Source of the DNA: a virus
Lineage: Duplodnaviria; Caudoviricetes
Direction: 5' to 3' (one strand)
DNA length: 64,000 bases
IMG/VR virus record: IMGVR_UViG_3300032167_000083
Span: 24,662-88,661 of that record
Made by a program: the position numbers and the translations under genes. This document shows, piece by piece, positions 2,608 to 64,000 of the stretch (within the stretch, counting starts at the first letter, position 1; every line of letters starts with the position of its first letter). Below the pieces are notes generated by a model that was given only the letters and a program-made list of their open reading frames with translations, was not told where the DNA came from and ran no database searches.

Positions 2608-2943
2608 TTATTTTACACTTTTTATTATATAGTTTTTATCCCAATCTGTCAACTCATCAAAGATAACAGTTATCATTGTATCTTCTTCGAATTGTTCTGG
2701 ATTGTCTGTTGTGAAGCTATATAATTTGTCATTAGGATGTCTAATAATAATTGTATTACCTTCAATTGAATGTATTGCACATTCTCTTGTTCTGTTAGAT
2801 TTAACATACAAAGGTGTGATTAATAAAGCTAAAATAGAAATAAATACAATTACCCCAAGTATTCGCTTGTTTCTCCTTTCTCTCTTTTTTCTTTGAACTT
2901 CTCTGAGGAATCTTCTTCCCTCAAATGAATAGTTTTTCTCCAT
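2608..2943 (-). CDS. membrane-anchored protein, paralog of 8199..8594
   Basis: Basic N-terminus + one TM helix + HPN..YxF...EDT domain; RBS before ATG 2943. Confidence 0.7.
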   Translation of the reverse strand: MEKNYSFEGRRFLREVQRKKRERRNKRILGVIVFISILALLITPLYVKSNRTRECAIHSIEGNTIIIRHPNDKLYSFTTDNPEQFEEDTMITVIFDELTDWDKNYIIKSVK

Positions 2944-2968
2944 AACTATTCTCCTTTCGTAAAATATT

Positions 2969-3026
2969 AGAGTGTTGACCACTCAAGTAAAGCTTAATAA
3001 TATTAAACTTGACTTCAATAGTCAAC
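2969..3026 (-). repeat. G.G-mismatch stem-loop + ACTCT motif, copy 1
   Basis: Minus strand GTTGACTATT-G-AAGT...ACTT-G-AGTGGTCAAC-ACTCT. Confidence 0.6.
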
Positions 3027-3730
3027 TGCGGAAATCCAGAAATTTCGCCTATATAGAGTTTTATTTTTAAAAATATTCAGTTTGAAAATATTTTTCTATT
3101 TTTTAATCGCCCTATAACATTAAACCCTCTGGGATTTTCACAAAACCCATACAGTATTTCACAATAAACCATAGGCTGTCTGGGATAAAATGTTTTGTCT
3201 TTCTTTAAAACATTGCCAACATTACCTAACACACCGAGTCCTTCCTGTTCCACTGTACTTTTTCACCTCCTTATCTTATGTACAAGGTGGATTTCCCACA
3301 CCAAATAGTTCTTTGAAGGGTGAACATTTCAATTTCCCATGTAAACAAATTCAAATAATTAACACGCATAGCCTTCCACAACTATGCATATTAATTGTGT
3401 ATTTTTGAATTTGCTGAGATATTATATAATATCTCTTTAAACACATCAGAAATTATTTCTATATTTCTAATATGCTTAAAGAGACACTACATAAGTGCCT
3501 CTTGTTTTTTATTAGTCGAACTTTGTAGCCCAACCACTATCATCTCTTTCTGGATTGTACATTTAAATCACCTCCATATTCTCATCAGAGTATTTTAACT
3601 CTTTTGAGTAATATTCCTCTATTGATATCTTTCCATCAAGATAATCTTTATCTCTTTGAGAAAGTCCATCATAGTCTTTAAGTGATAAATAACAATATAA
3701 TGAATATGCATTCATTTTCAATACATCCTT

Positions 3731-13261: not shown

Positions 13262-13975
13262 TTAAATCTCCTCATATAAATGTTTATTAAAATCATTATC
13301 CACTATTGTAAAATAGTCGAAAGCATAAGGATAAATAGTAGACTGTGCATTTTTATCTCCAGAAGGATTATCTTCTGCAAGTTGTAAATATTGTATATAA
13401 TATCCTTTCATTTCGTAAGGATCTTCAAATTCATCATAATAGTCAGTATCGCAAAAATGTCCATATTCAACTATTGCTATACCATAATCAGATTTTAAAA
13501 TATCATTAGTAAAAATAAATTCTAAAGTAATATTATCAATATATTTATTTTCATCAAACCTATCTTTTCTAACACTTTCAACTATTTCTGATTCAGTAAT
13601 AATAGCTTTAACAATACCAGTATCTTTGTCAATATGTACTTTAGATAATATATCAATATTATCTTGATTAGCAACATCAAATACATAATCTACTAATGGT
13701 ATTCGATTCATACCTTCATCTGGACCAGAGTAAATATCTTGAGAAATAACCCAACCTGTAAATTCACATAATGTATATGGAAGAATTTCAACTCCTGAAT
13801 TAATATTTTTACCAAGTGGAATTATGAATGAATGATTTTCTGATTCTGTATCCATACCAAAAAAATATCCCACAACCCAAGTATTAGGTTCGTATTGTAA
13901 ATTTTGATTTTCAAAGGTATCTTTAACTTTAGCTTTAAATAAAATAAGTTTTTTATTATTTATGTTATTATTCAT
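13262..13975 (-). CDS. YopX-like protein
   Basis: ILFKAK...WVVG...TLCEFTG...IF.NDI pattern. Confidence 0.55.
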   Translation of the reverse strand: MNNNINNKKLILFKAKVKDTFENQNLQYEPNTWVVGYFFGMDTESENHSFIIPLGKNINSGVEILPYTLCEFTGWVISQDIYSGPDEGMNRIPLVDYVFDVANQDNIDILSKVHIDKDTGIVKAIITESEIVESVRKDRFDENKYIDNITLEFIFTNDILKSDYGIAIVEYGHFCDTDYYDEFEDPYEMKGYYIQYLQLAEDNPSGDKNAQSTIYPYAFDYFTIVDNDFNKHLYEEI

Positions 13976-13976
13976 T

Positions 13977-14240
13977 TTATATAATTATCCTTCCTGTAGC
14001 TTGTGTTATTACATCATCAAAATCAACATATCCAAATAAAGCAGTATTTACTTCTTTATTAAAAATATTATTAATTTTCCATATTTCATCTTTTGTCAAA
14101 TCATCAATAACATAATTGCTATTACTTACTTTAATATAATAAGTATTGTTATTAATATCATTATCATTTTTTATATCCCAAAATAATTTAAAATCTTTAA
14201 TATCTGTATTGAAACCAAGACTCATAGAAAAAATTCTCAT
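13977..14240 (-). CDS. hypothetical protein
   Basis: Translationally coupled ORF. Confidence 0.6.
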   Translation of the reverse strand: MRIFSMSLGFNTDIKDFKLFWDIKNDNDINNNTYYIKVSNSNYVIDDLTKDEIWKINNIFNKEVNTALFGYVDFDDVITQATGRIII

Positions 14241-14524
14241 ATATAATCACCTTCTTCATTATTTAATTCAGCTATTGAAAAAACATCAACACCCATTTCA
14301 GCAAAATCAATTGGCTTATCGTTGTTTAAACAATTTAAAATATAATAATATATTTGTTTTTGAGAGTGATTATTTGATTCTAATGTTATTTTTAAGTTTT
14401 TCCAACTATATTCCTTTGTTTTAGGTTCATACCAAGGAATTTTTACAATTATTGAATATTCATTTAAAGGAAAATATAGACTTAATTCTGATAGTTTTTT
14501 ATTTACTTGTATTTTATCACTCAT
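14237..14524 (-). CDS. hypothetical protein
   Basis: GAGG RBS, coupled to the downstream gene. Confidence 0.6.
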   Translation of the reverse strand: MSDKIQVNKKLSELSLYFPLNEYSIIVKIPWYEPKTKEYSWKNLKITLESNNHSQKQIYYYILNCLNNDKPIDFAEMGVDVFSIAELNNEEGDYI

Positions 14525-18362: not shown

Positions 18363-20377
18363 ATGCCCAATAGATTATTTTATACAGCTAAGTTAAAGAG
18401 TAGTTTTATTATTGAGAATCACTGTGATATACATAAAAATTTCTATGAACTACTTATGGCAAATAATATAATTTCATTAGCTGATTCTCAAATGTTGAGA
18501 ACTATTCGACAATTAACAAATCATGAAATTGATTTGGAAAAATTGGAAGATTGGTATCGGGAACGAGATATTATTAAAAGACGAAAAAATTCTAAAGAAA
18601 ACAAAGAACGAATAAGACAATTACAAAATAATATTTATAACATGATGTTTATACCCGAATATATCACTGTGGTGATAGAAAAAGAAAAAGATTATGATTT
18701 ATTCTTTAAAAGAGGATTTAAATTTAATGGTGATAAATATACGAGATTGTCTTGCTCTGCTTCTCAGGCAAGAGTAAATACTGTTGTTTTTATAAAAGAT
18801 GAACTTAAACAACAAATGCAGGATATTCTTAATAATGGACGAAAGATGGATAAGCCGATGGCTCCAAGTAAATTTAATGCTTATTTTGGGTTGTATTCAT
18901 CTGCTACAAAACAAGTAACATATCCAAGATTTTGTATTATTCCAGATTATTGTGAGATGGATAGAGTTAAGGTTGATTTTGTAACTACTACAGATGATTT
19001 CTCTGATGATATTCTTGATGAAAGAACTATTGATGTGGAGTTTAATCGTTTTGATGGAAATGGATTAATTAGTCCTCAAATGGCTGAACAATGGAGTATA
19101 GATATTGGTATTTATAATCCTAATGCAGAAAATGAAGATGATAAAGGATATATTGCTTGTCAATTTTGTATTAGACAAAGTTTTACAAAAGGCATGTTAT
19201 GTACTTTTGATTTTCTTAAATTTTGTAAGGAAAAGAATAATGAAAATTATATTATTAAAGATGTTTATGGACATAATGTTGATTTAAGAGAGATTGATGT
19301 TATTCTTACTGAAGGACAAGTTAAAATGTTCGATCATTTTGGATATGAAAAAGATGGTGAATGGATTCCATCTCAAGAAGTCTTTGAAAATAATATTAAG
19401 AAAAATAATTTATTTTGGGGTGTGACTCGTTTTACACCTGAACAAGATGATAGAGTTCTTATTACCAATTATCAATTTTTACAAACCTTAAAAATGACAG
19501 ATGAAGATATAGAAGAATTATGTCAAGATACTGTTAATTATTTTAAGGGTGTTTGTTCTGGAGATTATAATTATGCGTTATTGTTTATGCTTGGAGATAG
19601 TATGAATGAGAGAAAGATGCAGAATTATATGAAATCCAGTGATAATTATTGGTTAAAAAGTTTAATATGCAATCCTAATTTATTCAATGATAAATATACA
19701 AAGCAAAAGATTAAAGATTGTATTGAAAGAAGAATAGAACAGGCTTGTATAGGAAAAATTTTGGTTGAAGGAAATTTTCAGGTTCTTATTCCAGACAGTT
19801 ATGCTTTTATGGAGTGGTGTTGTTATAGAGATCCAATGAAAGTAAAAGGTTTATTAAAAGCAGGACAATGCTATAGTAAATTTTGGAAAGACAAAGATAA
19901 ACATAAAATTTTATCACAAAGGTCTCCATTAACTCATTTTAGTGAATGTCATTTAATGGATGTAGTTTGGAATGATGATATTGATGAATGGTTTAAATAT
20001 AGTTATACTGGATTTTATACAAATATACATGATGAAAGTGTTATGCTTTGGTCTGGTGCAGATTTTGACTATGATATTTGTGCGAGTACATCTAATCCAG
20101 TAATGATTAGATGTGTTTATAAAAACCAGAAACCAGTAACATATGATGTTCCTAAACCAAAGAAAATGTTATTTACAGAAACAGATTTATATAATTTTGA
20201 TAAAAAAAGTTTTGGTTCTTTAATAGGTCCTCTTACGAATCATGGAACAAGTATTATATCTTTAATTTCATATTATAGAGATAGATATAATAAATATCAT
20301 GATGAACTTGATTTAAGAAAGTTAAGATTATTAGAAGATAGATTAAAGATGGTATGTGCAGGTCAGTCAAGACAGAT
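18363..20377 (+). CDS. yonO: YonO-like single-subunit (two-barrel) RNA polymerase, exon 1
   Basis: SASQAR, K..AY.GL..S, FDGNGLI, QFCIR..FTKG, QRSP, GADFDYD, IGPLTN motifs; SPbeta-like position upstream of HU and terminase. Confidence 0.85.
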
Positions 20378-21698
20378 GAAATATTGTCTGCGTATATGGT
20401 AACATATATGAAAAATTAGTGGTGAACCTATAAATATAGGGTGTATAATTTACGGTAAGGAATCGTAGGAAATGACGATTAGAAATTATGCTAACAGGGG
20501 ATTCTAAGGATTTTTATTAATCTATGAAAATCCTGTGGTAAGCTATTTTTTGGTGGTTGTAAAAATTAAAAAGGAGGTGAAAAAGGGTAAAATGAAAGAA
20601 GGATATAGACCTCATAATTTTATTGATAGAACGAATATGAGATTTGGAAAATTAGTATGTCAAGAATATTTAGGACAAGGAAAATGGAAATGTTTGTGTG
20701 ATTGTGGAAACACACATATTGTAAAAGGTGATGATTTACCTGTGAATAGTAAAAAAAGAGGAGTTAAGTCTTGTGGGTGTGGGCATTTAAGTAAAACTTG
20801 TCCTGATATTAATTATTTTAAAAACATTAATACTTCTGAAAAAGCATACATACTTGGATTATTAGCATCTGATGGAAATATTTATAATTATAATAATAGT
20901 TATTATGCTACGATTAGATTAAAATATACAGATGTAGATATCTTAGAAAAAGTAAAAAAAACTATGAATATAACTTCAAAAATCACATATCAAGAAGAAA
21001 ATGTTGTTTTCCCACAAGGTAATCAAGGTATTGCTAAGATGTGTTGTTTAAGGATTTATGGAAAAGAAATTATTAATGATTTAATTTCGTATGGTTTAGT
21101 TCCAAATAAAACATTACATTTGAAAGTTGATTATAAAAAAATACCAAAAGAATTCGTAAGAGATTATTTAAGAGGATTATGGGATGGAGATGGAACTTTT
21201 GGTTTTTATGAACGACAAAATAATTCTCATACATATGAAGTTCATTATATTGGCTCTTCTGAAATAGTTAATGATATTAAAGATATTATCTTAGAAAATT
21301 TTCCACATTACAAAATTGATACTTGGCATGCTAAAGAATGTAATGAAAATATTTTTAGATTAGGGTTATCTCGTAGAGATGATTGTATAGAATTTTTAAA
21401 TTTTTTATACAAAGATGCTAATATATATTTAGATAGAAAATATCAGAAGTATATTGATTGTATAGATTTAGTTAAATCTATTCCTTTTAAAAAATCACCA
21501 TGTAGAAATTAGAAACTTAATCGACTATCCCAAATGGAGGTGGAATTCCTCAATAGGAGTAGGGGAGAGGTGAAAATCCTTTCTGGGTGAAACCCCCTTA
21601 AATCGAAGTGCCACAATCCTAATTATTTAGGATTAAGATATAGTCAAAACCGACTCATATGAGTGTTAAAGTACTATGAAAATAGCGGTATGTAAATG
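20378..21698 (+). mobile_element. group I self-splicing intron
   Basis: 5' exon ends in U, intron ends in G; core elements GCTAACAGGG..AATCCTGTGGTAAGC, CGACTAT and GATATAGTC (P7); splicing restores Q-I-D-K-T-K-I-G in frame. Confidence 0.88.
20592..21512 (+). CDS. intron-encoded LAGLIDADG homing endonuclease with a Cys-rich N-terminal module
   Basis: AYILGLLASDG and YLRGLWDGDG; N-terminal RFGKLV..WKCLCDCGN..KSCGC. Confidence 0.88.
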   Translation: MKEGYRPHNFIDRTNMRFGKLVCQEYLGQGKWKCLCDCGNTHIVKGDDLPVNSKKRGVKSCGCGHLSKTCPDINYFKNINTSEKAYILGLLASDGNIYNYNNSYYATIRLKYTDVDILEKVKKTMNITSKITYQEENVVFPQGNQGIAKMCCLRIYGKEIINDLISYGLVPNKTLHLKVDYKKIPKEFVRDYLRGLWDGDGTFGFYERQNNSHTYEVHYIGSSEIVNDIKDIILENFPHYKIDTWHAKECNENIFRLGLSRRDDCIEFLNFLYKDANIYLDRKYQKYIDCIDLVKSIPFKKSPCRN

Positions 21699-22572
21699 AG
21701 ATAAAACAAAAATTGGACAAGAAGTAAAAGCAATAGCTAAAATATGGAAAACATTTCGTCCAATAAAAGAGACTGACACAGAACAAGAAAGAGAAGAAAA
21801 AGAGTTTTATAATTCTATTCTTTCAGATAGAAAACCATACTTTTTTAAGTATTTATATAAAGATTGTAAAACAACCTATAATACAGCTTATAAAAGTTTT
21901 GATAAAGAGTCTCGTAGGAGATATGGAATAACATTAAAAGAATTAATGAATATAGAAAATATAACAGAGGAACAAGAGAAATTAATTAATCATTTTATTT
22001 CAGAAACAAGACTTATTATGTCTGACTGTGAAATGAATAGATTATGTAAACATATAGAAAATGCTAATTTTGAAATTAAATTAAATATAAGAGATGATTC
22101 TAAATTTGATTATATGTATTTTTTTGATGAAAATATTGAATGGAAACAAGAAACATATGAGAAAATTTTTGAATTAATGAAAATGTTTAGTTTAAGTAAA
22201 AAATCTAATAAACTTGCTAATTCTTTAAGAGAAAATCAGAAAATAGGAGTCAAATCTGATAACGAAGTAACTAATGGTAAGAAGCTTGAAATAGAAGTAA
22301 TGAGAAACAGATTGCTTGAAGAAGGGACTTCAGATAGTCGTGAGTTATGTAATTATCTTTTGAAGATTTTTTATGAAGATAAGAGAAGTTGGGATAAAGG
22401 ATTGTTGTGGAAATTAGTTGGAGATATTTTATATGAACGTTGTTTTAATAAAAGTAATGGAAATATAAGAGTTCCTGTTTTAGATAATGATGGAGATATT
22501 ATTTTTTATAATGATAAATTTAGTGTAAGAGATGTGAATATAAATAAAGATGAGGAAGTGAACCCATGCTAA
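21699..22572 (+). CDS. yonO: YonO-like RNA polymerase, exon 2 (spliced product 962 aa)
   Basis: Same frame as track ORF 21946..22572; (I)DKTKIG...RKPYFFKYLY. Confidence 0.85.
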
Positions 22573-24281: not shown

Positions 24282-25643
24282 TTGGTGAATAATATAATGA
24301 GTAATGATATGTTAAAAGATAAAAAAGAAAGTTTTTTAGAGTTTGCAAATAGAATTGTGACAGATGAAAACATTAAAGAATATGGTATTTTACATATATT
24401 TAAGAGTTTATTTGAGAATGATAATGTGTCATATGATAATGCTCAAAGACAACTATTAGGTATTAGAAAATTTTTAAATGAATATCGTAAAGATTTAATA
24501 GATAAAGAAATGGAACAATTAGATAAGTCTTTAGATTCAGTGAAAGATGTTGTTCAACAATTAGATATTTCAATTAATGCTGATGGTAGTCAGACGAGTA
24601 ATGCGTTATTACAATTAAGTGAAGAACAAATAAAAACTCCAAAATTGTTATTAGAAGCACATGGATATGATAATGATATGTGGGAATTAGTTAATTCTAA
24701 AAATTCCATGTGGCATCAAAATAGCAATAAAAATGGACTTAAAACATTATATTGCAGTAAAATTACAGTAAAACCACGAACGGAAATTTCTATAGAAAAA
24801 GTTCAGGAAATTTTTGAAAAAATGGATAGAGAATATCAAATTCCATTTTATGATAATGGTTTAGAATTTAGTAATAAAGATGAATGTATGGTTTTGAATT
24901 TCTTTGATGTCCATTTTTCTAAATTAGCTCATTCTTCAGAATCAGGGGAAAATTATGATTATAAAATAGCTAAAAAAAGAATTATGGATAGTATATATGA
25001 ATATAAGAATCGTTTTATAGGAAGGTCCTTTCATAATATTTATTTTGCTATAGGTCAAGATTATTTTAATTCAGAACCCACAGGAAATACTGTTGGAAAT
25101 ACAAAACAAGATAATGATAGTAGATATTCAGTAATGTTTGAGGAAGGTGTTAAAACATTAATTGATGTTATTGAAATTTTGAAAACAATGGGGATAAATA
25201 TAATAGTTCCATTAGTACAGGGAAATCATAGTACATATACTGAATACTACGCTGCACAATATTTAAAAGCATGGTATCGTAATGATACATATGTTACAAT
25301 TTGTGCAAGTCCATTACCAAGAAAATATTATACATTTGGAACGAATCTTTTTGGATTTACGCATAATAGTGAAGAAAAAAATAGAATATATACATTAATG
25401 CAAGTTGAAGCCGCTGAAGAGTGGGGGAAGACAGTAGAACATACTTGGTTTACAGGACATTTACATTGTGAGGATGTCAAAGAAGGTGGAGGTGTCTATA
25501 TTAGACAAGCTCCTACATTATGTGGGACAGATGCTTGGCATAAAAGATCTGGGTATGTTAATCCAATAAAAAGAACACAGGCTTTTGTTTATGATTATGA
25601 TTTAGGATTGGTAGAAAGCCATTATGTTCGAATAATAGAATGA
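24282..25643 (+). CDS. calcineurin-like metallophosphoesterase
   Basis: DVH, GQD, GNH, FTH, GHLH motifs. Confidence 0.85.
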   Translation: MVNNIMSNDMLKDKKESFLEFANRIVTDENIKEYGILHIFKSLFENDNVSYDNAQRQLLGIRKFLNEYRKDLIDKEMEQLDKSLDSVKDVVQQLDISINADGSQTSNALLQLSEEQIKTPKLLLEAHGYDNDMWELVNSKNSMWHQNSNKNGLKTLYCSKITVKPRTEISIEKVQEIFEKMDREYQIPFYDNGLEFSNKDECMVLNFFDVHFSKLAHSSESGENYDYKIAKKRIMDSIYEYKNRFIGRSFHNIYFAIGQDYFNSEPTGNTVGNTKQDNDSRYSVMFEEGVKTLIDVIEILKTMGINIIVPLVQGNHSTYTEYYAAQYLKAWYRNDTYVTICASPLPRKYYTFGTNLFGFTHNSEEKNRIYTLMQVEAAEEWGKTVEHTWFTGHLHCEDVKEGGGVYIRQAPTLCGTDAWHKRSGYVNPIKRTQAFVYDYDLGLVESHYVRIIE

Positions 25644-45414: not shown

Positions 45415-46074
45415 ATGAAAAATAAAAGAGGATTTGAAGATTTTATGACAATAATGCTTCCTGATATGGAAGGCTTAGAAAATATGAAATTACCATCTAT
45501 TGAACTATATAACGATTGGTTGGATTTTATAGAGAGAAAAATATATCTTAATTTTGAAATTGGACCTATGTTAGAAAGTTTAGAAAAATACATTTTAAGA
45601 TGGAATAAAGAAGATGAAGATGATAAGGTTGAACAAGAAAATAGACAACCTATTAATATATATATAAATTCACCTGGAGGTAGTTTACAGGATTGTCTCA
45701 CTTTCATTGATATTTTAAAGATGTCAAAAACTCCAATTCGGTTAATATGTAGATCTTCTGCTTTGTCTGCAGGAGCACTTATTTTTATGTGTAAGGGAGA
45801 AAATATAACACGATTAATTCTTCCACATGGTACAGTTTTAATTCATCAAGGTAGCATTAATGCAGGAGATGCACAAACTCATGCTTTTTTGGATACTGCT
45901 GATAATGTAAAGAAAACTGAAGCAAAAGTAAAAGAATATGTTCTTGCAAATACGACAATATCTAAACAGTTATACTCACGTAATCTAAAAAAAGAATGGT
46001 GGATTGATGCAGAAGAAGCTGTTCAATTGGGGATTGCTGATAAAATTATAACTGATATTTCAGAATTGATGTGA
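45415..46074 (+). CDS. clpP: ClpP-family protease
   Basis: IYINSPGG, ALSAG, LIHQ, W.DAEEA..LGIADKI. Confidence 0.88.
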   Translation: MKNKRGFEDFMTIMLPDMEGLENMKLPSIELYNDWLDFIERKIYLNFEIGPMLESLEKYILRWNKEDEDDKVEQENRQPINIYINSPGGSLQDCLTFIDILKMSKTPIRLICRSSALSAGALIFMCKGENITRLILPHGTVLIHQGSINAGDAQTHAFLDTADNVKKTEAKVKEYVLANTTISKQLYSRNLKKEWWIDAEEAVQLGIADKIITDISELM

Positions 46075-54326: not shown

Positions 54327-57300
54327 ATGGCTAAAAATAAAAATCAAAGAATAGATTTTGGATGGGAAAATAATTTTGGTGTAAAAACATCAGAAGATAT
54401 AAAAGATTTACAAGAAGTTCTTCAATCATTAAATGTTGCGAAAGAAGAATACGATCAATATTCATTAAGTAAGATTAAAGATGCTTCACAAGTTGATAAA
54501 CTATATACACATATATTAACAAAAATGAATAAAGATGGAGAAATTGAGAAAAAAATAGGACTAGAAATAAAAAGAAAAAATGATCAAATTCAAAATATTC
54601 AAAAAAAAACAATGGAAGTTAGAAAAGTTATTAATGATGTAACTGATGGGTTAATTCAAGATAAAGAGATAATATCTCGAAACTTTTTAGATAATCAAGG
54701 AAAAGTAGTTGATGAAAAGTTTTTTACTACTAAAGGTCTTTCTATTAGAAGTAATAAAAATGAAGCAGATCCTCTTAAAGTGTTAGAAGAAAAGAAGAGA
54801 ATTTTAGAAAATTCTTTACATGAAAGATATAAGTATAGTGCTTCAAGGGGAACAGTAGGTGTAGAGGAACAAATAGAATATTTTGAAGGATTTGATGAAC
54901 TTTATCAAGATCAGTATGATGAATGGGGTAAAACTATTGATTATATTGATACTGTAATTCAAAAGATAAATTCAAGTAATAGGTCTGATGAAAAAAAGAA
55001 TAAAGAGATTAAGAGATGGAGAGATATACAAGATCGTGCGAGAAAAACATATCAAAAATCTGCACATAAAAATAATGGAACACTTTCTTCTGTGGCTTTA
55101 AATTGGGCAGATATTAAGGATGGGAGTGCTAAAATTTCTGATTTTGATCCATATTATAATTTACAAACAGCAGTTGAGACTATGACCGAAGAATTAAATG
55201 AAAAATATAGTACATTGAAGGGACAAATTATAGCAGATTCTAAAAAAGATTATTCTGATAAAATTAAGAAATTTGCTAATGGAAGATTTACATTAGGTAA
55301 AAAATCAACAAAAGTTGAAAAAAAACTTTCAAAAGATACTCATTTAGAACATATACAAAAAACACAGAATTTAGATGCTGATGCACTTAAAGAACTTGAT
55401 CATATATTTGAAAAAGGAGTTAGTGTTATTGGTAGAGCCAAAGAATATTATGATGCTAAATATAAGGATACAGAAACTCCTGAAATAGATTTAGATGTAG
55501 CTCGAAAAATAAGAACTGCTTTTGAAAATGTGGAAAAACCAATTAAAGAAGTAGAAACTCGAAAAAACACAAGATATAGTGGACAAGGAGTTTCTATATC
55601 AAATAGAATGAAAGAATTAATGAATTCTACTGGTGTAAAAACTGTAATGGATTTGCCAAAAAAATTGGCTTATTTTGATTTTGAAACAATTGGAGAAGAT
55701 AAGTTTGCAACACAGTTTTCAATAAGATATGGAGACCAAAGTATTACTAAATTTTTTAAATTAACTGAAGAAAAGGCAAAATATATAAATGATACTTTAG
55801 GCAAATTGCAATCCTCTAAAGATGGGGATGATAATTTATCTAGGCAGGAAAAAATGGATTTATATCAAATGGCAGATTATTCAATGGTAACTTCTCCAGA
55901 TAAAACAAAAAGGATTGTTGCAAAGCATGGAGATTATGATTTATCAAAAGCAATTCCAAAACATATGATTCAACGTATAAAAGATGGTATTGAAATAATG
56001 ACAAAAGGAGAAGGTATCGTTAATCTTTTAGAATACAATGATACAGAATTAGGAGTTAGAAATTTCTTAAATACTACTTTAAAATCTGTTGTAGAAGAAG
56101 GGTATGCTACAACTGGTCATAATATTAGAACTTTTGATAATTCAGTATTTAAAAATATTGGAGTTGATGAAAAGTTATATTCTAATTTTATAGATAGTTT
56201 TGAAGTTGTAAAAGAATTTTATCAACATGGTTCACAACGTCAAGGAAAAGATGGCAAAATAAAAACATTAACAGGACATACATTATCAGATCTTGCTGAC
56301 TTCTTTGAAATAGATATGGAAAAAGAATTAAAAAAACAAGAGAATAAAAATATTACACAGCATACAGCAGATTATGATACATTGTTGCAAAAAAAAATCT
56401 TCGAAAAGATTATAAAACATTCTAATCGAATTAAGAATTTAAATACAGATAAAATCACACAAGACAAAAAGGCATTTATTAGACAAGGTAATGTGATGGT
56501 TGCTGCTCGTAATATTATTCGTCAAGGCTCTAATTCTTTTAAAATTGATGAAGATGGTAATGTAGACACAAGTTCTTATGGAAAATTACTTATGGAAAGA
56601 GGAGGAGCTTACGAATTTTTAGGAGCAAATAATGATGTTATCGATAAGATTGTGAGTTCTTGGAGGAATGTAGACACAGGAGAATTAGTTTATACTGAAC
56701 ATTCAGATATGGGAGATTTAGCAAATTTTATTTCTCGTGTTGGAGATGGTATTGCATTTAATGTTAATGATTTAGAGCAAAAAAAGAAAAAAAAAGATCG
56801 AAATAATATAGAAAATCCAATTAATTTAAAAGATCGTGCTTTTTCTCGTATTTTTAATGGAAAGCATAATAAATTAAATGGATATCAATTATTAGAATCT
56901 TTTTATGAACAATTCAATAGTGAACAAACTAATGCAACTTCTGGTCAAAAACAATTGTTTAAAAATTTAGATAAAGATAAAGATTTTAAAGATGTTATAT
57001 TTAAACTATATGAACAGTTGAATGATGAAAATCTTACAAACAAAGAAAAAGATTTTATTTTAAAAAAAGCAGGTTCAGAATTTATTACTTATGGAGAAGC
57101 TTTTACAGAAGCAACTATAGGACATCTTGCAAAGACAAAAGCAGAAGATACTGTTTCTTCTTATAGAGCAGCATATGCAGAAATTTTACAAGAATGGAGA
57201 AATTATCTACCAGAAAATGTATATCAGACAGCATTAGAAACGTTAAAAAGTTGGAATAAAATGTCTGATTCTGAAATTGCTGAAAAGAATGGATTTCATT

Positions 57301-60300
57301 GGCTAAATAAAATGATTCTTGATAATTTAAATCAAGAAGAATTTATGAAGCATAATAATAAATTAGGTTTTTTAAATATACATAGAAATCAATTAAAGAA
57401 CGGAAAAGGAAAAGAAAAAAAAACTATAGATTCTTTTGTAAATGATTATGTTGATAATTTTAAAAAAGTATTTCCAAAAAATAAAGGAAAAACAATGGCT
57501 GTTGATAGTTTGTTAGAAAATGGTAAGAAGTTATGGGGGCAAGAATTTGAAGATGCTCTTACAGGAAAATTTAAAAAAACTAGATTAGATAAAACAAAGA
57601 AGTTTGGAAGAAATTCGAAAGAATGGGAAGAGTATGAGAGAGCATATGATGAAGCTACAAACAATCAAAGAGGGATAAAAGGTAATTCTGCAAGTATTTT
57701 AGGGCAATTAAAAAAATTAGAGAACTTTTTTATGTCTTCTGAGAGTGGTAGAGGATATGGCATGACATTATTACCTTCTATGGATGGTAAGTCAATTAGA
57801 CTTGGATTATACTCTAATAGAAAAATGGAAGATTATATGACAGATGGAGAGTTAGATATTGAAAAGATGGCTAGTGCTGTAATTCCATTGGATTTTGGAG
57901 ATGGAAATATAAAAAAAGGATATCAAGATATTGTTAATGTTTTTTCTGCAAGAAATGATGGAACAAGAGAAATGTTAACAACTCTTAATGAAGATGCATT
58001 TTATTCATTAATTCAAAAAATAATGATGCCTGAAAGTTATATTTTGAGAAGTTTAGATGATGATAAAATAGGATTGGCTTCTTGGGCTATGAGAAAAGCC
58101 ATTAATGATAAATTGGTAGCTCCATCCGCAGGAACATATCAAAGAGGTAGTGATTTTGTAGATTCTTACGATGCTACTGGAGCAACTAAAGAACAATTGT
58201 TTGCAAAAAGAACAAAAATGGGTTTAAATGGATTAGTGACAAGAGCTTTAAAATCAATTGGATTTAAGTCAGACTCAGATATAGAAAAATATAGACAAGA
58301 TGCAATACAATATATGTACCTTTTGAATGCAGGATTAACAAAAGATGCAGAAGGTAGTTTGGATGTTTTTTTAAGAGATGCTTTAAAATTACCTGAAAAT
58401 AAAAATGTAGGAATAGATGCAATAAAAAAAAGATTTGAAACACATGTAGGTAGATTAGTAAACCCACATCTTTTTAATTTTAATTTATCTGCTGATAAAG
58501 AAGAAGCAGCACAAGAAGGTCTTGCAAGTATGTTAAGTGCAAGAGATTTAGACCCATCTGGTATTTTACATCCAGAAGCTAATAGAGGTATAGATCAATC
58601 AACTAATAATTTGTTATTAAAAATAATGAAAGGATTTTATTCTTATGATTTTAAAAATAAAACAAATGAAAATGTATTAAAGAAATATGGTGTGTATAAA
58701 AATTCATTTACTACAGATATTGGAAATATAAATTCTGACATTATTAATTACGATGCATTAACTCATGGTAAATTTGAAACAATACAAATGGAAGAAGATG
58801 GGTTAAGAATAGTTTATGAAGAGGGTGCTAAGAGATTACAAGAGGATATAGATAATGAATTAAAAAAAACAACACCAGATGTAGAAAAAGTTAATGAGTG
58901 GAAAAAACAAATTTCACATTATCAAACAGCTTTAAAAAATGGTTTATATCCATCTGTTAAAAATGATAGTTTGATAATTGATAAAGAATTTGCAGAAATG
59001 TTAAGTTTAGAATCTAGATCACATAGTTTAAAATTTAAAGATGCAGAAGAGGCTATTAGAGTTTTAAGAAAATTTAATTTTGATGATGGTGATAAAGATT
59101 TACAAGATCCTATAAGAAGCTTAGGTGTTGGAGAAATTTTAAAGATAAAAGATGGAGAAGATAGAAGATTTAAAAATGTTTCTTTTTCACATAATTGGAA
59201 AGAAATGGAACTTAATTCTAACCATATGTTTGATAAATTAGAAAAAAGAGCAGATGGTACATATTTAATGACTTATACAGAAAATAAAAAATTTGATACA
59301 GGAACAAAAGCATTGTTTAATAATCGTGGTACATTTATGTACTTAGATCATTATCTTGCTAATATTGCTAGAGAATTGTTTGGTGGAGGATTTCAAACAG
59401 ACGAGAATGGTAATATATTAAGAGACACAGAAGGTAATAAATTATTAAAAAGTTCAGCTTCTTTATTTATTCCAAAGCGTAAGAAATCAAAGATGAGAGA
59501 ACAAGATTTGATGTTATATGAAGCAGGAGACCTTTATAATGTATTACAATATGCTAAACGTTATGCAGAAGAAAAAGGTATTATAGATCCTAATGATGAA
59601 ACAAGTGTAGAAAATTTTAAAAATGTTTTATCTAATGTTTTATCAAAGAATACTAATCTTATGAAAAATTGGATACAGCCTATAAGAAAAGGTACAGATA
59701 TTCTTTTTAATTCAGGAAGTTATGAACAAGATGGTGTAGCTATAGATAATTTCGGAAACCATTTATATGGGAATGATATTTATGATGAAAATGGAAAGAT
59801 ATATCAAGGAGATGATGCTACTGTTGAAAATAAATGGAGATTAATGTGGCAAAAGGGATATACATTAAATGGTATTAGAGACGATAGAACAAGATTAGAA
59901 GAAGGTTTAGATGAGATGTTCCATAAAGAGTATGGTCTAGCTAAAAATTCTTTTAAAAATAGAATACCTGAAAATTCTATACTGATGAATTTTAGACCTG
60001 CAAATGATCCTCATTATTTTAAGCCAACTGGTACTGTTAGTCAAGAAGATGCAGAAAAATATAGTAGATACAAAGTTTCAAAAAATGCGAGAGATTCTTT
60101 AAAAAGAAAAGTTGGTTTATATTCTCAATATTTAACTCCTGAAGAAAAAACAGCACTTGAGGAATTTTATGAACCTTTTACTTCAGAAAAATCAGTTGAT
60201 GAAGTAGCTGAAAAACTTCAAGCCGAATATGGAGGTATGTTAACTCGTAATTTAGATTTTATGAGTGGTAATGGGAATAAAATTGTTGAAGAATTTGCAA

Positions 60301-63300
60301 ATGGTGAAAATGTAATACGATTAGTGAGAAGAGAAGATTCTAATACGGATGTATCAGGTAATGAAATAGATTTAGCTGATAAGAAAATCAATGGTTTGAA
60401 TAAACCAACAAGAATAAATGGTGCATTTTCTGAATATGATTGGAATACTACTCCTGTAGGTTCTATATTGAAAAAAGCAAGAGAAGAAGGAAAGACTGGA
60501 CCTGTTAGAGTAGTTCTTTCTTTAAACACAAAAGAACATCCATCAAAATTTGATGCAGTTAGTGGAGAAACTTTTAAAGATTTACAACATTTAGTTCTTG
60601 TTGTTGATGATCCAGAAATGCTTAGTAATGGTAGTGTAAGTCCTTCTCAAATGGATGATTTAGCGAATAAAGTAATTAGGGCATATTATGATGGTTCTAA
60701 AGATTTAGGAAAGATTTATGAAAATTATCTAAAAGAAGCTTTTTCACAGGTTAAAAATAAAAATAGTGAATTATGGAAAAGAAATACATCAAAAAGACTT
60801 GGTAATGCTTCTGCTATGAAACTTACAGGTATGAACTATGAGGCATTTATAGGTAAAAAAGGTCTTGATTTATCTACATTAGGAAATACTATATTTTTAA
60901 ATAAAAAACATATGAAGGAAATGATGACTACAAGAGATAGATCAGAAAATCCTGAAATTTTAGCAAGAAATATTGAAAATCTTCAATTCATCTATGAAGA
61001 AATGTTTAAATCAGAAATTGCTAATCAAACTGTTGATACTTTTGATACATTAAAAAATCAAAAAATGGATAGGAAAGGTAACGTAAAACTTAATGAGTTA
61101 GAAGATTTATTGATAAAAAGAATAACTGATGCTGCAGATGTTGATAAAGGTGGAACAAAATCTTTGTCTGGATTATTGTCAAGATATCCTTACACAAGTG
61201 GGTTAGATATATCTCATTCAAGAGTTCAATTAACATCAGATGAAAGTGCTGTTGCTTATGGACACGCTGCAATAAACCCAGGACTTGCAAGAATTTTCAA
61301 TGGTGACTTTGACGGAGATACTTCTTATATTCATTTACCTTGGTTAAGTCAAGAAATTGATATAGATAAAATGAAAAAAGCATGGAGTTCTTACAATACT
61401 ATGTTACAACAAGATGATTTAGTTTCACAAATGGTAGGACAAGAAGTATTGAATGAATATTTATCAGAAAAGGGACAATCAAAAGAAGATCCTCAAGCTG
61501 TTGAAGATGCGTGGAAATTTATAGCCAAAGAACAGACAACAAATAGATTAAACGATAAAATTGCTGCAATAATTGCAAAGTTTAACTTTGGTAAAGTAGG
61601 TGGATTTTCTAATATTGCATCAGGTGTTAGAGAAGCTTTAAGAATAGATAAAAGAGATGAAATGTCGGATGGAATATCTTTAGCAGAAAAACAAGATGCA
61701 TTGACAGTTAGAGCATTTTTTGAAATGATTGAACAAGATGCTATTAGTGCAAAACATGTAAAAAAACGTTTGACTGATAAACATAAAGGTGATGATGGAG
61801 CTGCGACACTATTTCATGAACTCAGTAATTTTTATACTTTATTAACTAAAGGACATATGCTTGGAGAAGAAGATACTGTTGCATTAAAAGGTGATGCTTG
61901 GAGAAAAAAAATTGCCAGTTATGGACAAAATATTGGTATTTTTGGTTCTGATGATGACTTTTTAGATGGTAGACAGGGACAAATTGCTATGGCTAGAATG
62001 TGGGCATCTGCAAATCCAAATACTAAAGAAGGATTAGCTTTTCGTCAAAAATTGATTAATGATGGAGTAGTTAAATTTGATGATATTACAGATGAGAATA
62101 ATGTAAAAAAAGATAAATTCGATCATGTTGGCAAGATTTCAAAAGAATCATTTATTGATGCATTAAGTAGAGTAGACCCAAATAACGATCTTATTTTTAG
62201 ACATTATAAGGCACGTAATTCTATGGGAAAAATAAGTGAAGATTATGCTTTCGATAATTTTGTAAACAGAGGAATGAAAAATAGGGGTATTGGAAAACCA
62301 AATCCAGATGAAGAAGATGGTGGTACTGATACTTCTGGATATGATCAAAGAACTGAAGCTATTAATCGAGAGGCAAAAGCTGAAGCTGATAAGATTAGAA
62401 TATCTAAAGGATTAGAGGCTCAATGGAACAATGAAAGTAAAGCTGCAGGAAATGTTAAAGGTATTATAGCAAGAGATGGTGCATTAAGATCTTTGAGAGC
62501 AAGTTTAGAAGATATTTCTGCATTAGGAAAAGTTACGGCAGAATTCAAGGGATTGCAACATCTGTATAGAGCACATGATGGAAAAAATGAAATTACCAGT
62601 GATCAGTCAAATGCTGCGACTGTAACTCAAATAGCAGATGCTTTATTTGGTGAAAGTTATGAAAAAAATAGTGAATTTTCTGCTATGTATAATGCAATGA
62701 ATCATTTGATTGTAGAGGGTAGTATTCCTGATACATTTAAGCGTTATGATGAAAATGGTAAAGAAATGAGTTTTAAATATAATGAAGATGAACATGATTT
62801 GTTTGAAAAATTTGCTAATTTCACTAATATGAATGTTAAAGATAAAAATAATATGAAAAATCTCATGACATCTACATTAGTTGGAAATATGACACATGAA
62901 ATGATGCAAGTTTTAAGAGAAAATAAAATTTCTGATATTGGAATCTTAACAGACGAAAAAGTAGCTGAAAAAGCAGGAATGAAAAATGTGTATGAGAAAT
63001 GGCAGAAAAAATACACCGATGTTTATAAGCTACAAGCTGATAGATTAGGAGTTGAATTAAGTTCACAACCTGCAGAATATTTAACAAGATTATCTGATTT
63101 AGGATTTGCTGATGGAGGACTTGCTGAAAAATCATTAGCAATACAATTTGGAAAAGAAGGAAACGAACATTATTTGTTTGGTACTTTAGATGCTTATGTT
63201 AATGATTTATTGATTGATTATAAAACTACTGGACATATTGATAAAAGAAAAATGGGATATCAATTAACTGCATTAAGAGAATTAATGGCAGCACATGGGC

Positions 63301-64000
63301 AAGAACTTGTTGATGAGAGTTTAAAATTTGGTGATGGAAAATTTGCAAAAGCAAATGCTGATCAAGATGGTATATTTAGTATAGATCAGTTTATGAATAA
63401 TTTTAGAGGTGTTATTGCTCATACTTTAGATAAAGAAAATAAAGCAGTTTTATATCAGATGGATCTTATGTCTAAAGAAGAATTTTTAGATTATACGAGT
63501 TTATATTATGGAAATGCATATGAACCTGGAAAAGTACAATGGGATCCGATGGACCCTCGAATTATTCAGAGTGCATTTATGTCAGATTATAATAATAAAC
63601 TTCCATTATCTAAACTTATTGATCAAGACTTAAAGAAAGATATGGATTTATTAGAGAAGTTCATACCAATAAAAAATAAAAGAGATTTAGAGTTTAAAAA
63701 TCAGAAGAAAATCTTTTTAGAAGATGATGATAAAGTCAAAAAACTTATTGAACAGTCAAAAGAGGTAAAGGAAAAAAATGCTCCAATTCTGGAAAGAAAT
63801 TTAAAAAGAGATGCTTTAGATAGAGATATTGCAAAATATTCATCTATTATTAATGATGTTAATAATGGTAATTATACAGATGCAGAAAAGGAACGTAAGA
63901 GAGAAAAAGCGAATAGTATTTTAAGAAGATATAGTACTGAAGATAATGAAATTACTAATATTGAACAATTAAGAGTTTTAAGAGCATCTATGGGAGAAAA
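54327..64000 (+). CDS. giant multidomain protein (>3,220 aa, 3' truncated): DEDDh exonuclease + two-barrel RNA polymerase + PD-(D/E)XK nuclease; tape-measure locus
   Basis: AAAGGA RBS + ATG 54327; the track lists no + strand ORF past 54284, consistent with a frame open to the window end; spot translations in this frame give YFDFET/GHNI..FD/HTADYD, SRYP..NGDFDGD and GTLD..IDYKT..YQL. Confidence 0.88.
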   Translation, partial: MAKNKNQRIDFGWENNFGVKTSEDIKDLQEVLQSLNVAKEEYDQYSLSKIKDASQVDKLYTHILTKMNKDGEIEKKIGLEIKRKNDQIQNIQKKTMEVRKVINDVTDGLIQDKEIISRNFLDNQGKVVDEKFFTTKGLSIRSNKNEADPLKVLEEKKRILENSLHERYKYSASRGTVGVEEQIEYFEGFDELYQDQYDEWGKTIDYIDTVIQKINSSNRSDEKKNKEIKRWRDIQDRARKTYQKSAHKNNGTLSSVALNWADIKDGSAKISDFDPYYNLQTAVETMTEELNEKYSTLKGQIIADSKKDYSDKIKKFANGRFTLGKKSTKVEKKLSKDTHLEHIQKTQNLDADALKELDHIFEKGVSVIGRAKEYYDAKYKDTETPEIDLDVARKIRTAFENVEKPIKEVETRKNTRYSGQGVSISNRMKELMNSTGVKTVMDLPKKLAYFDFETIGEDKFATQFSIRYGDQSITKFFKLTEEKAKYINDTLGKLQSSKDGDDNLSRQEKMDLYQMADYSMVTSPDKTKRIVAKHGDYDLSKAIPKHMIQRIKDGIEIMTKGEGIVNLLEYNDTELGVRNFLNTTLKSVVEEGYATTGHNIRTFDNSVFKNIGVDEKLYSNFIDSFEVVKEFYQHGSQRQGKDGKIKTLTGHTLSDLADFFEIDMEKELKKQENKNITQHTADYDTLLQKKIFEKIIKHSNRIKNLNTDKITQDKKAFIRQGNVMVAARNIIRQGSNSFKIDEDGNVDTSSYGKLLMERGGAYEFLGANNDVIDKIVSSWRNVDTGELVYTEHSDMGDLANFISRVGDGIAFNVNDLEQKKKKKDRNNIENPINLKDRAFSRIFNGKHNKLNGYQLLESFYEQFNSEQTNATSGQKQLFKNLDKDKDFKDVIFKLYEQLNDENLTNKEKDFILKKAGSEFITYGEAFTEATIGHLAKTKAEDTVSSYRAAYAEILQEWRNYLPENVYQTALETLKSWNKMSDSEIAEKNGFHWLNKMILDNLNQEEFMKHNNKLGFLNIHRNQLKNGKGKEKKTIDSFVNDYVDNFKKVFPKNKGKTMAVDSLLENGKKLWGQEFEDALTGKFKKTRLDKTKKFGRNSKEWEEYERAYDEATNNQRGIKGNSASILGQLKKLENFFMSSESGRGYGMTLLPSMDGKSIRLGLYSNRKMEDYMTDGELDIEKMASAVIPLDFGDGNIKKGYQDIVNVFSARNDGTREMLTTLNEDAFYSLIQKIMMPESYILRSLDDDKIGLASWAMRKAINDKLVAPSAGTYQRGSDFVDSYDATGATKEQLFAKRTKMGLNGLVTRALKSIGFKSDSDIEKYRQDAIQYMYLLNAGLTKDAEGSLDVFLRDALKLPENKNVGIDAIKKRFETHVGRLVNPHLFNFNLSADKEEAAQEGLASMLSARDLDPSGILHPEANRGIDQSTNNLLLKIMKGFYSYDFKNKTNENVLKKYGVYKNSFTTDIGNINSDIINYDALTHGKFETIQMEEDGLRIVYEEGAKRLQEDIDNELKKTTPDVEKVNEWKKQISHYQTALKNGLYPSVKNDSLIIDKEFAEMLSLESRSHSLKFKDAEEAIRVLRKFNFDDGDKDLQDPIRSLGVGEILKIKDGEDRRFKNVSFSHNWKEMELNSNHMFDKLEKRADGTYLMTYTENKKFDTGTKALFNNRGTFMYLDHYLANIARELFGGGFQTDENGNILRDTEGNKLLKSSASLFIPKRKKSKMREQDLMLYEAGDLYNVLQYAKRYAEEKGIIDPNDETSVENFKNVLSNVLSKNTNLMKNWIQPIRKGTDILFNSGSYEQDGVAIDNFGNHLYGNDIYDENGKIYQGDDATVENKWRLMWQKGYTLNGIRDDRTRLEEGLDEMFHKEYGLAKNSFKNRIPENSILMNFRPANDPHYFKPTGTVSQEDAEKYSRYKVSKNARDSLKRKVGLYSQYLTPEEKTALEEFYEPFTSEKSVDEVAEKLQAEYGGMLTRNLDFMSGNGNKIVEEFANGENVIRLVRREDSNTDVSGNEIDLADKKINGLNKPTRINGAFSEYDWNTTPVGSILKKAREEGKTGPVRVVLSLNTKEHPSKFDAVSGETFKDLQHLVLVVDDPEMLSNGSVSPSQMDDLANKVIRAYYDGSKDLGKIYENYLKEAFSQVKNKNSELWKRNTSKRLGNASAMKLTGMNYEAFIGKKGLDLSTLGNTIFLNKKHMKEMMTTRDRSENPEILARNIENLQFIYEEMFKSEIANQTVDTFDTLKNQKMDRKGNVKLNELEDLLIKRITDAADVDKGGTKSLSGLLSRYPYTSGLDISHSRVQLTSDESAVAYGHAAINPGLARIFNGDFDGDTSYIHLPWLSQEIDIDKMKKAWSSYNTMLQQDDLVSQMVGQEVLNEYLSEKGQSKEDPQAVEDAWKFIAKEQTTNRLNDKIAAIIAKFNFGKVGGFSNIASGVREALRIDKRDEMSDGISLAEKQDALTVRAFFEMIEQDAISAKHVKKRLTDKHKGDDGAATLFHELSNFYTLLTKGHMLGEEDTVALKGDAWRKKIASYGQNIGIFGSDDDFLDGRQGQIAMARMWASANPNTKEGLAFRQKLINDGVVKFDDITDENNVKKDKFDHVGKISKESFIDALSRVDPNNDLIFRHYKARNSMGKISEDYAFDNFVNRGMKNRGIGKPNPDEEDGGTDTSGYDQRTEAINREAKAEADKIRISKGLEAQWNNESKAAGNVKGIIARDGALRSLRASLEDISALGKVTAEFKGLQHLYRAHDGKNEITSDQSNAATVTQIADALFGESYEKNSEFSAMYNAMNHLIVEGSIPDTFKRYDENGKEMSFKYNEDEHDLFEKFANFTNMNVKDKNNMKNLMTSTLVGNMTHEMMQVLRENKISDIGILTDEKVAEKAGMKNVYEKWQKKYTDVYKLQADRLGVELSSQPAEYLTRLSDLGFADGGLAEKSLAIQFGKEGNEHYLFGTLDAYVNDLLIDYKTTGHIDKRKMGYQLTALRELMAAHGQELVDESLKFGDGKFAKANADQDGIFSIDQFMNNFRGVIAHTLDKENKAVLYQMDLMSKEEFLDYTSLYYGNAYEPGKVQWDPMDPRIIQSAFMSDYNNKLPLSKLIDQDLKKDMDLLEKFIPIKNKRDLEFKNQKKIFLEDDDKVKKLIEQSKEVKEKNAPILERNLKRDALDRDIAKYSSIINDVNNGNYTDAEKERKREKANSILRRYSTEDNEITNIEQLRVLRASMGE

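Follow-up and report, generated by a model that had tools for sequence, protein, structure and literature searches.

A probable RecB-like nuclease domain directly behind a putative two-barrel RNA polymerase module in a giant, cysteine-free phage protein

In the Thermus phage P23-45, for which a system also including P74-26, G20c and TSP4 is named, the virion RNA polymerase gp96 is fused to the tape measure protein, and it has been proposed that the polymerase stays at the tape-measure pore and transcribes pre-early genes during DNA entry (Chaban et al., Nat Commun 2024, PMC10770324). The polyvalent proteins of phages and conjugative elements similarly carry many enzyme domains in one giant chain, are thought to enter the host with the DNA and include virion RNA polymerase modules (Iyer et al., J Bacteriol 2017, PMC5512222). 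Here, we analysed 64,000 nucleotides (nt) of an uncultivated tailed phage of the gut (Caudoviricetes; positions 24,662 to 88,661 of IMG/VR record IMGVR_UViG_3300032167_000083, hereafter the window), which form the last 64 kb of a linear 88,661-nt viral contig (CheckV completeness 58%). A single open reading frame (ORF) at 54327–63998 runs for 3224 codons without a stop up to the window end and, because the G+C content of the window is only 27.9%, this 9.7-kb open frame is no accident. The product of this gene very probably contains, at amino acids (aa) 2755–3070, a RecB-like PD-(D/E)XK metal-dependent nuclease with its H-E-D-DxK-Q motifs intact and no iron–sulfur (Fe-S) cluster, and this domain directly follows an RNA polymerase module of the two-barrel type. 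The features concerned are as follows, A3 being a MAFFT alignment of 11 domain sequences (13–31% identity to the window):

54327..63998, + strand: giant ORF encoding the N-terminal 3224 aa of the protein (P0001); open at its 3′ end, where the contig boundary truncates the gene
62589..63536, + strand: RecB-like PD-(D/E)XK nuclease domain (very probable), aa 2755–3070; from motifs, alignment and profile searches
62895..62897, + strand: His2857 (GNMTHEMM), invariant; A3, 21/21 sequences
63126..63128, + strand: Glu2934 (LAEKSL), invariant, on the predicted first core strand of a low-confidence model; A3, 21/21 sequences
63189..63224, + strand: Asp2955 (GTLD) and Asp2964-Tyr-Lys2966 (IDYK), the D...(D/E)xK catalytic core; A3, 21/21 sequences; aligns with AdnB GRIDAV...VLDWKT
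63261..63263, + strand: Gln2979 (GYQLTAL), the Q of QxxxY, with Leu at +4; read by eye and from the profile alignment

An original prediction, made by a model from the letters and their translations, had drawn attention to five nuclease motifs, all of which were placed by script in one ORF and where the prediction had put them: VGNMTHEMM (aa 2852, nt 62880), AEKSL (aa 2933, nt 63123), GTLDAY (aa 2952, nt 63180), IDYKTT (aa 2963, nt 63213) and MGYQLTA (aa 2976, nt 63252). Relatives for comparison came from protein and contig collections. A phmmer search with aa 2025–3224 against 1.84 billion representatives returned 10 proteins at E ≤ 0.001, among which P0002 (7296 aa, E = 3.4e-76, 32% identity) was the only match aligned across the nuclease region, with the five motifs kept; P0003 (1375 aa) and P0004 (2607 aa) matched in the polymerase part and, on inspection, each carried the H/E/D/DxK/Q set farther downstream (all three proteins are singleton clusters). 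Contig collections were scanned with an alignment of the polymerase core (A2), the pattern of which was found in 26 stretches of IMG/VR (15 loci confirmed) and 19 stretches of the species-genome collection (3 loci confirmed). Nothing was found by word-indexed protein searches (with region 2750–3224, alignment A1 or A3) or by scanning for related loci with either the C-terminal protein or A1, and the degenerate DNA pattern FGTLDA...DYKTT had 0 matches in viral and metagenome contigs. Because tblastn with three protein queries also gave 0 matches among GenBank phages, the family is known from metagenomes only. One of the three loci from the species-genome collection, L017 (JAGBBT010000051.1, 1661 nt), is a 100% identical polymerase-region fragment. 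It was binned in a Treponema metagenome-assembled genome from the rectum of a deer, and this placement, which could be an artefact of binning, hints weakly at a habitat or host.

Exactly five columns of A3 are invariant (H2857, E2934, D2955, D2964 and K2966). When the 21 sequences that reach the region (P0001–P0004, L002–L016, L018 and L019) were aligned to the A3 profile, all five residues were present in 21/21, where the profile itself was built from 11 of these sequences and the many near-duplicates among them reduce the set to about 11 lineages (L017 was left out, as this fragment stops before the nuclease region). In every relative reaching that far, the motif set lies 400–600 residues past the polymerase motif EQDAISAK. 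The accessory motifs of RecB-type nucleases are an upstream His and a QxxxY behind the Lys; in our set, a Gln follows the Lys by ~10–22 residues in every lineage, as read by eye (the aligner misplaces this column). An insert of ~90 residues separates the first helix from the His motif in A3, unlike in RecB-family domains. The pattern exceeds chance, and the motif set is a conserved RecB-like PD-(D/E)XK signature, in line with the original prediction.

A search with the Pfam PDDEXK_1 model, which had been suggested as a check, was negative on the window's own sequence and positive on relatives only: 4/11 A3 members matched (each scanned singly), and a rescan of 8 of the 11 placed two of these, L015 (E = 6.3e-8, 33.3 bits) and L005 (E = 2.5e-5, 24.8 bits), above the gathering cut-off of 22 bits, and L004 (20.6 bits) and P0004 (17.0 bits) below it. 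Among 177,635 PDB sequences, the best matches of the A3 profile were to the RecB-like C-terminal nuclease of mycobacterial AdnB (7sjr_B and 6ppu_B, residues 983–1037; E = 0.008), in which E, D, DxK and Q..Y line up with those of the family, and the next were weak matches to MGME1 (5zyv_A and others; E = 0.47–0.95). A co-alignment profile of 9 other relatives gave 24.7 bits to the P0001 domain and 32.3 bits to P0002, and none of 25 pairs of shuffled decoys given the same treatment exceeded 7.4 bits. Profiles built in four MAFFT modes from 9 sequences without the window's clade scored the P0001 domain at 15.9, 15.9, 19.0 and 10.2 bits, and the maxima from 2000 shuffles for three of these four profiles were 10.0, 8.4 and 10.0 bits. 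A profile of the Pfam-positive clade (A4) gave P0002 11.0 bits, above all shuffles, and a profile of the window's clade (A5) gave 17.1 bits to L012 and 10.1 bits to L015. In the ESM Atlas, the nearest clusters to aa 2761–3224 were PD-(D/E)XK endonuclease-like and DUF2800 (0.90–0.91, recognition 2366), which is a lead and not proof. On these sequence comparisons, the link between the window's domain and the nuclease family is real but transitive, running via intermediate lineages, and it is reinforced because the domain occupies the identical position in homologous giant proteins.

Cas4/AddB-type families are defined by four Cys residues that bind a 4Fe-4S cluster. As there is no Cys in any of the 11 aligned domains (0 in each), no Fe-S cluster is possible, and the Cas4/AddB Fe-S families were ruled out by this total absence; the Cas4/AddB-like label of the original prediction was accordingly abandoned, the Tyr of QxxxY also being lost in the window's clade. 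Judged by sequence, the closest relatives that have a name are RecB-type nucleases that process DNA ends and carry no such cluster.

Several results weigh against this identification. Pfam, PHROGs and NCBIfam gave no nuclease match on the window protein or on the excised domain, even at E ≤ 10, and neither PF12705 (PDDEXK_1) nor PF10926 (DUF2800) matched the contig in any of the six frames. The profiles without the window's clade returned no significant whole-protein score against full-length giant chains, although domain-sized targets are the fair test for them. An hhalign comparison of A1 with A4 reached E = 0.015 at a probability of 3%, the A4 profile gave P0001 6.3 bits (within the top of the shuffles), and the A5 profile left 5/7 other-clade members at ≤2.3 bits and, alone against the PDB, found no nuclease; sequence queries of the PDB with A1, A2 or the polymerase region likewise gave no relevant match. 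The Tyr of QxxxY is missing in the window's clade, its position being held by Leu in the window, P0002 and L002, by Glu in P0003 and L018, and by Tyr in the other six lineages. Structure prediction was also of low confidence: AlphaFold2 reached a mean predicted local distance difference test (pLDDT) score of 41.5 with 2 sequences and 50.5 with 11, and in the 11-sequence model the core (segment residues 159–316) stays below pLDDT 50. A Foldseek search of the PDB gave 0 matches at E ≤ 0.001 (the best row, at E = 0.035, is meaningless), and the highest Z in VIA-align against 48,161 chains was 5.5, for the helical part only; Dna2 (5ean_A, VIA-align Z 5.2) was not used, as it was tied with unrelated chains. 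Within this low-confidence 11-sequence model, strands are predicted on E2934 (segment residues 181–187), D2955 (194–204) and D2964/K2966 (207–213), and a helix (222–235) on Q2979; the order strand(E)-strand(D)-strand(DxK)-helix(Q) is that expected for a restriction-endonuclease-like fold and is suggestive. As modelled, a restriction-endonuclease-like fold is unconfirmed and also not refuted.

The nuclease motifs lie C-terminal to a DxDGD (beta-prime-like) polymerase module in the same polypeptide, in the window, as had been predicted, and also in every relative examined; in the window, DFDGD (aa 2327) is in the same frame as the nuclease motifs. Two further features precede the nuclease domain:

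60579..62612, + strand: putative two-barrel (beta-prime-like) RNA polymerase module; RYPYTSG at aa 2286, NGDFDGD at aa 2325–2331, EQDAISAK at aa 2469
55671..56378, + strand: DEDDh-type 3′-5′ exonuclease motifs YFDFET at aa 449, TGHNIRTFD at aa 596 and HTADYD at aa 679; motifs only

The polymerase motifs are conserved in A2, and the phmmer relatives match the polymerase region. The Pfam model RNA_pol_Rpb1_2 matches the window protein weakly (E = 0.13), a LEF-9 match was obtained on the relative L012 (E = 6.6e-4), and the top named ESM Atlas clusters for the polymerase region were viral RNA_pol_Rpb1_2 (score 0.78; a lead only). The pair of polymerase and nuclease is present in all lineages; the three-enzyme polyprotein originally proposed applies to part of the family only, and its exonuclease is unconfirmed. 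YFDFET, TGHNIRTFD and HTADYD, which we take to be DEDDh-type exonuclease motifs, belong to a motif set seen in 4/8 giant proteins checked (P0001, P0002, P0004 and L002), and such motifs were not found in the other four (L012, L013, L014 and L019); the exonuclease region had no Pfam match, and a six-frame search of the contig with PF00929 was also empty.

Elsewhere in the window, a second two-barrel RNA polymerase, probably non-virion, is encoded at 18363–20402 (679 aa, ADFDYD; Pfam RdRP, E = 1.6e-12). Behind it lie a LAGLIDADG homing-endonuclease ORF (20535–21512) and a 208-aa ORF (21946–22572) that matches the C-terminal part of phrog_8308, the same PHROG as the second polymerase, and the second polymerase gene looks as though it had been split by a mobile element.

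Because the contig ends inside the giant gene, its tape-measure context was read from relatives, in which a tape-measure continuation, missed in the original prediction, follows the nuclease. Within a single ORF, the nuclease is followed by PF10145 (PhageMin_Tail) in L002 (E = 2.9e-25), L012 (E = 4e-32) and P0004 (E = 4.8e-9); in L014 and L019, PF10145 instead opens the next ORF, 266–300 nt downstream, with no Rfam intron match there. In P0002, inspection by eye showed a motif resembling a tape measure near aa 3760 and, near aa 5850–5915, a Cys/His pair of CHAP-like type. The corresponding part of the window is this:

63537..63998, + strand: charged, helix-prone stretch behind the nuclease domain, to the contig end; from sequence, the tape measure domain of relatives following here

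A point against a tape measure in this phage is that the tape-measure part is not on the window's contig, with 0 matches of PF10145 across 88.7 kb. Upstream of the giant gene, PHROGs annotation identified portal, head-protease and tail-type genes, and these head and tail genes, together with the absent PF10145, fit a tape measure that has lost its distal portion to the contig boundary. Among these upstream genes, the ORF at 45415–46074, originally called ClpP, matches PHROGs families of head maturation proteases (best E = 2.2e-26).

Amino-acid composition is a further shared property. The giant ORF has 0/3224 Cys, versus 101/5852 (1.73%) in 12 other window proteins; the giant chains of relatives have 2/7296 (P0002), 0/2607 (P0004) and, in L002 and L012, 0/5545 and 0/3703; and P23-45 gp96 (L020) has 0/5002. 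A Cys-free giant chain would fit a protein that crosses the tail and the cell envelope unfolded. By analogy with gp96, the whole chain is probably the front part of a Cys-free tail tape measure protein that is ejected into the host.

On this basis, we regard the locus as a variant of the tape-measure-fused virion polymerase, set apart by the conserved RecB-like nuclease, lacking an Fe-S cluster, that immediately follows the polymerase. Like gp96, the giant protein is encoded behind head and tail genes, has DFDGD in one chain with a tape measure (in our case as seen in relatives), lacks Cys and belongs to a phage with a second polymerase, here probably non-virion. Unlike in the window, where the polymerase lies ~2300 aa into the chain, the polymerase of gp96 is near the N-terminus (DFDGD at aa 779); in the window's family, DEDDh motifs precede the polymerase in some lineages and the PD-(D/E)XK domain always follows it. 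No detectable copy of the nuclease was found in gp96 with the A3 profile (best 2.8 bits), and PDB sequence searches detected no sequence similarity to gp96. The polymerase modules of polyvalent proteins are N4-like (T7-type), unlike the two-barrel type of the window, and their DNases are ParB-like, stated to occur without other DNase domains alongside; 'Tape measure', 'REase' and 'RecB' have 0 occurrences in the accessible text (PMC5512222). The order and spacing of H, E, D, DxK and Q are those of RecB-family domains (PDDEXK_1, PF12705; AdnB and MGME1), but the window's domain falls below every hidden Markov model threshold, has the QxxxY Tyr replaced and is embedded in a giant ejected-type protein with no helicase partner. 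Its D...DxK...Q core is also that of Cas4/AddB-type nucleases, but it has no four-Cys Fe-S cluster. In the literature (supplements aside), we came across no description of a PD-(D/E)XK domain within a tape measure or beside a virion polymerase.

What this nuclease might do can be considered from its place in the chain. Among the roles that we weighed, the most likely, which we put forward tentatively, is that it processes the incoming genome end at the entry pore. In the sequence of events that we infer, which presumes an active nuclease, DNA as its substrate, delivery with the ejected chain and coupling to transcription, the ejected tape-measure part would form or line the entry pore, and the polymerase–nuclease pair would sit at the cytoplasmic mouth of this pore, at the point where the linear genome's leading end emerges. 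The nuclease would engage and trim the DNA end, as do its end-processing relatives AdnB and MGME1; trimming would expose single-stranded DNA or a defined terminus, on which the fused polymerase could begin pre-early transcription, and might also aid the annealing or joining of genome ends. One of the pre-early products would be the second, non-virion polymerase. Two points weigh against this role: a nuclease acting on the phage's own genome would be a risk to the phage, and the need for end processing is without precedent in P23-45, because the accessible text of the paper (PMC10770324) has 0 occurrences each of 'single-stranded', 'ssDNA' and 'nuclease'. Taken as a whole, this combination of identity, context and mechanism is the best explanation that we can offer, and we consider it plausible at somewhat short of even chances.

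A stronger version, which we consider rather unlikely, would be an obligate pore-tethered machine, in which the nuclease resects or nicks the first-entering end, the polymerase starts on the exposed strand or 3′ end without a classical promoter, and Cys-free chains of 3,000–7,000 residues are an adaptation to unfolded travel. Such 'resection-coupled' first transcription would, by analogy, resemble the use of single-stranded DNA by QDE-1-type polymerases, which are likewise of the two-barrel type and with which the window's polymerase would share a template if single-stranded DNA arose from end processing. The template of QDE-1-type polymerases is reportedly tied to single-stranded DNA at sites of DNA damage. 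These polymerases act on single-stranded DNA but are eukaryotic, and the enzymes concerned are separate proteins (PMC9508822).

The nuclease could instead be an injected weapon, acting without the polymerase and perhaps once freed from the giant chain by proteolysis, that cuts host, plasmid or rival-phage DNA (for host shut-off or exclusion). Enzymes directed at the host are found on polyvalent proteins, and the survey of these proteins considers DNases acting on host or rival DNA (PMC5512222). Two further points in its favour are that the active-site residues are intact in 21/21 sequences and that a head maturation protease is encoded at 45415–46074. It is nonetheless unlikely: the best-matching solved relatives, AdnB and MGME1, need DNA ends, and host chromosomes are circular; the nuclease is always beside the polymerase while other enzyme modules come and go, which suggests coupling; a tape measure is expected at few copies per virion; and no processing sites were identified in the chain.

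The constant fusion of polymerase and nuclease would also be compatible with a role on the RNA side, in which the nuclease makes primers for the fused polymerase or trims nascent pre-early transcripts, and PD-(D/E)XK endonucleases are joined to the polymerases of influenza virus (PA) and bunyaviruses (L protein). We consider this improbable, since the PDDEXK_1, AdnB and MGME1 matches point to DNA enzymes and no bacterial or phage precedent was found in the literature. It is similarly improbable that the domain holds the genome end without cutting it, as a pilot or as a shield against host RecBCD/AddAB: its position between polymerase and tape measure and the loss of the QxxxY Tyr in the window's clade would suit such a holder, but five catalytic-type residues are invariant over 13–31% identity, which would be unusual after loss of catalysis. 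That the motifs are a coincidence in a helical linker, with no nuclease domain, is very improbable, for even though the window's own sequence has no family-model match and no confident fold was obtained, there is the 21/21 invariance, two relatives score above the PDDEXK_1 cut-off, AdnB is the top PDB match of the family profile, leave-out profiles beat shuffles and the Atlas features lie near PD-(D/E)XK clusters.

The giant genes of the relatives have further peculiarities of coding. In-frame TAG codons occur inside those of L004, L006, L007, L009, L010, L015 and L016 (3 to 12 per 1,000–1,500 codons examined), one of them, in L004, at the site of a conserved Gln of P0004 (LLQANIY), and these relatives appear to read TAG as Gln. 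In L013, two Rfam group I introns (13852–14120 and 14179–14515; 83.8 and 54.4 bits) lie just past the apparent ORF end, and the giant gene there is probably spliced. Genes that look split can be accounted for either by group I introns or by the sense reading of TAG.

Together, these comparisons illustrate how an enzyme domain that all family libraries miss on the query can still be recovered from the conservation of its active site in remote relatives. Transcription of the first genes is understood in only a few phage systems, namely N4, crAss-like phages and P23-45, and our results suggest that a tape-measure-fused polymerase can bring a conserved nuclease of the DNA-end type directly behind it, in ~11 lineages from gut and other metagenomes that include no cultured member. 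If the two modules do cooperate, these phages would be a source of compact, Cys-free polymerase and nuclease modules that refold after translocation, and they would initiate transcription by a new route, on DNA that has not yet fully entered the cell.

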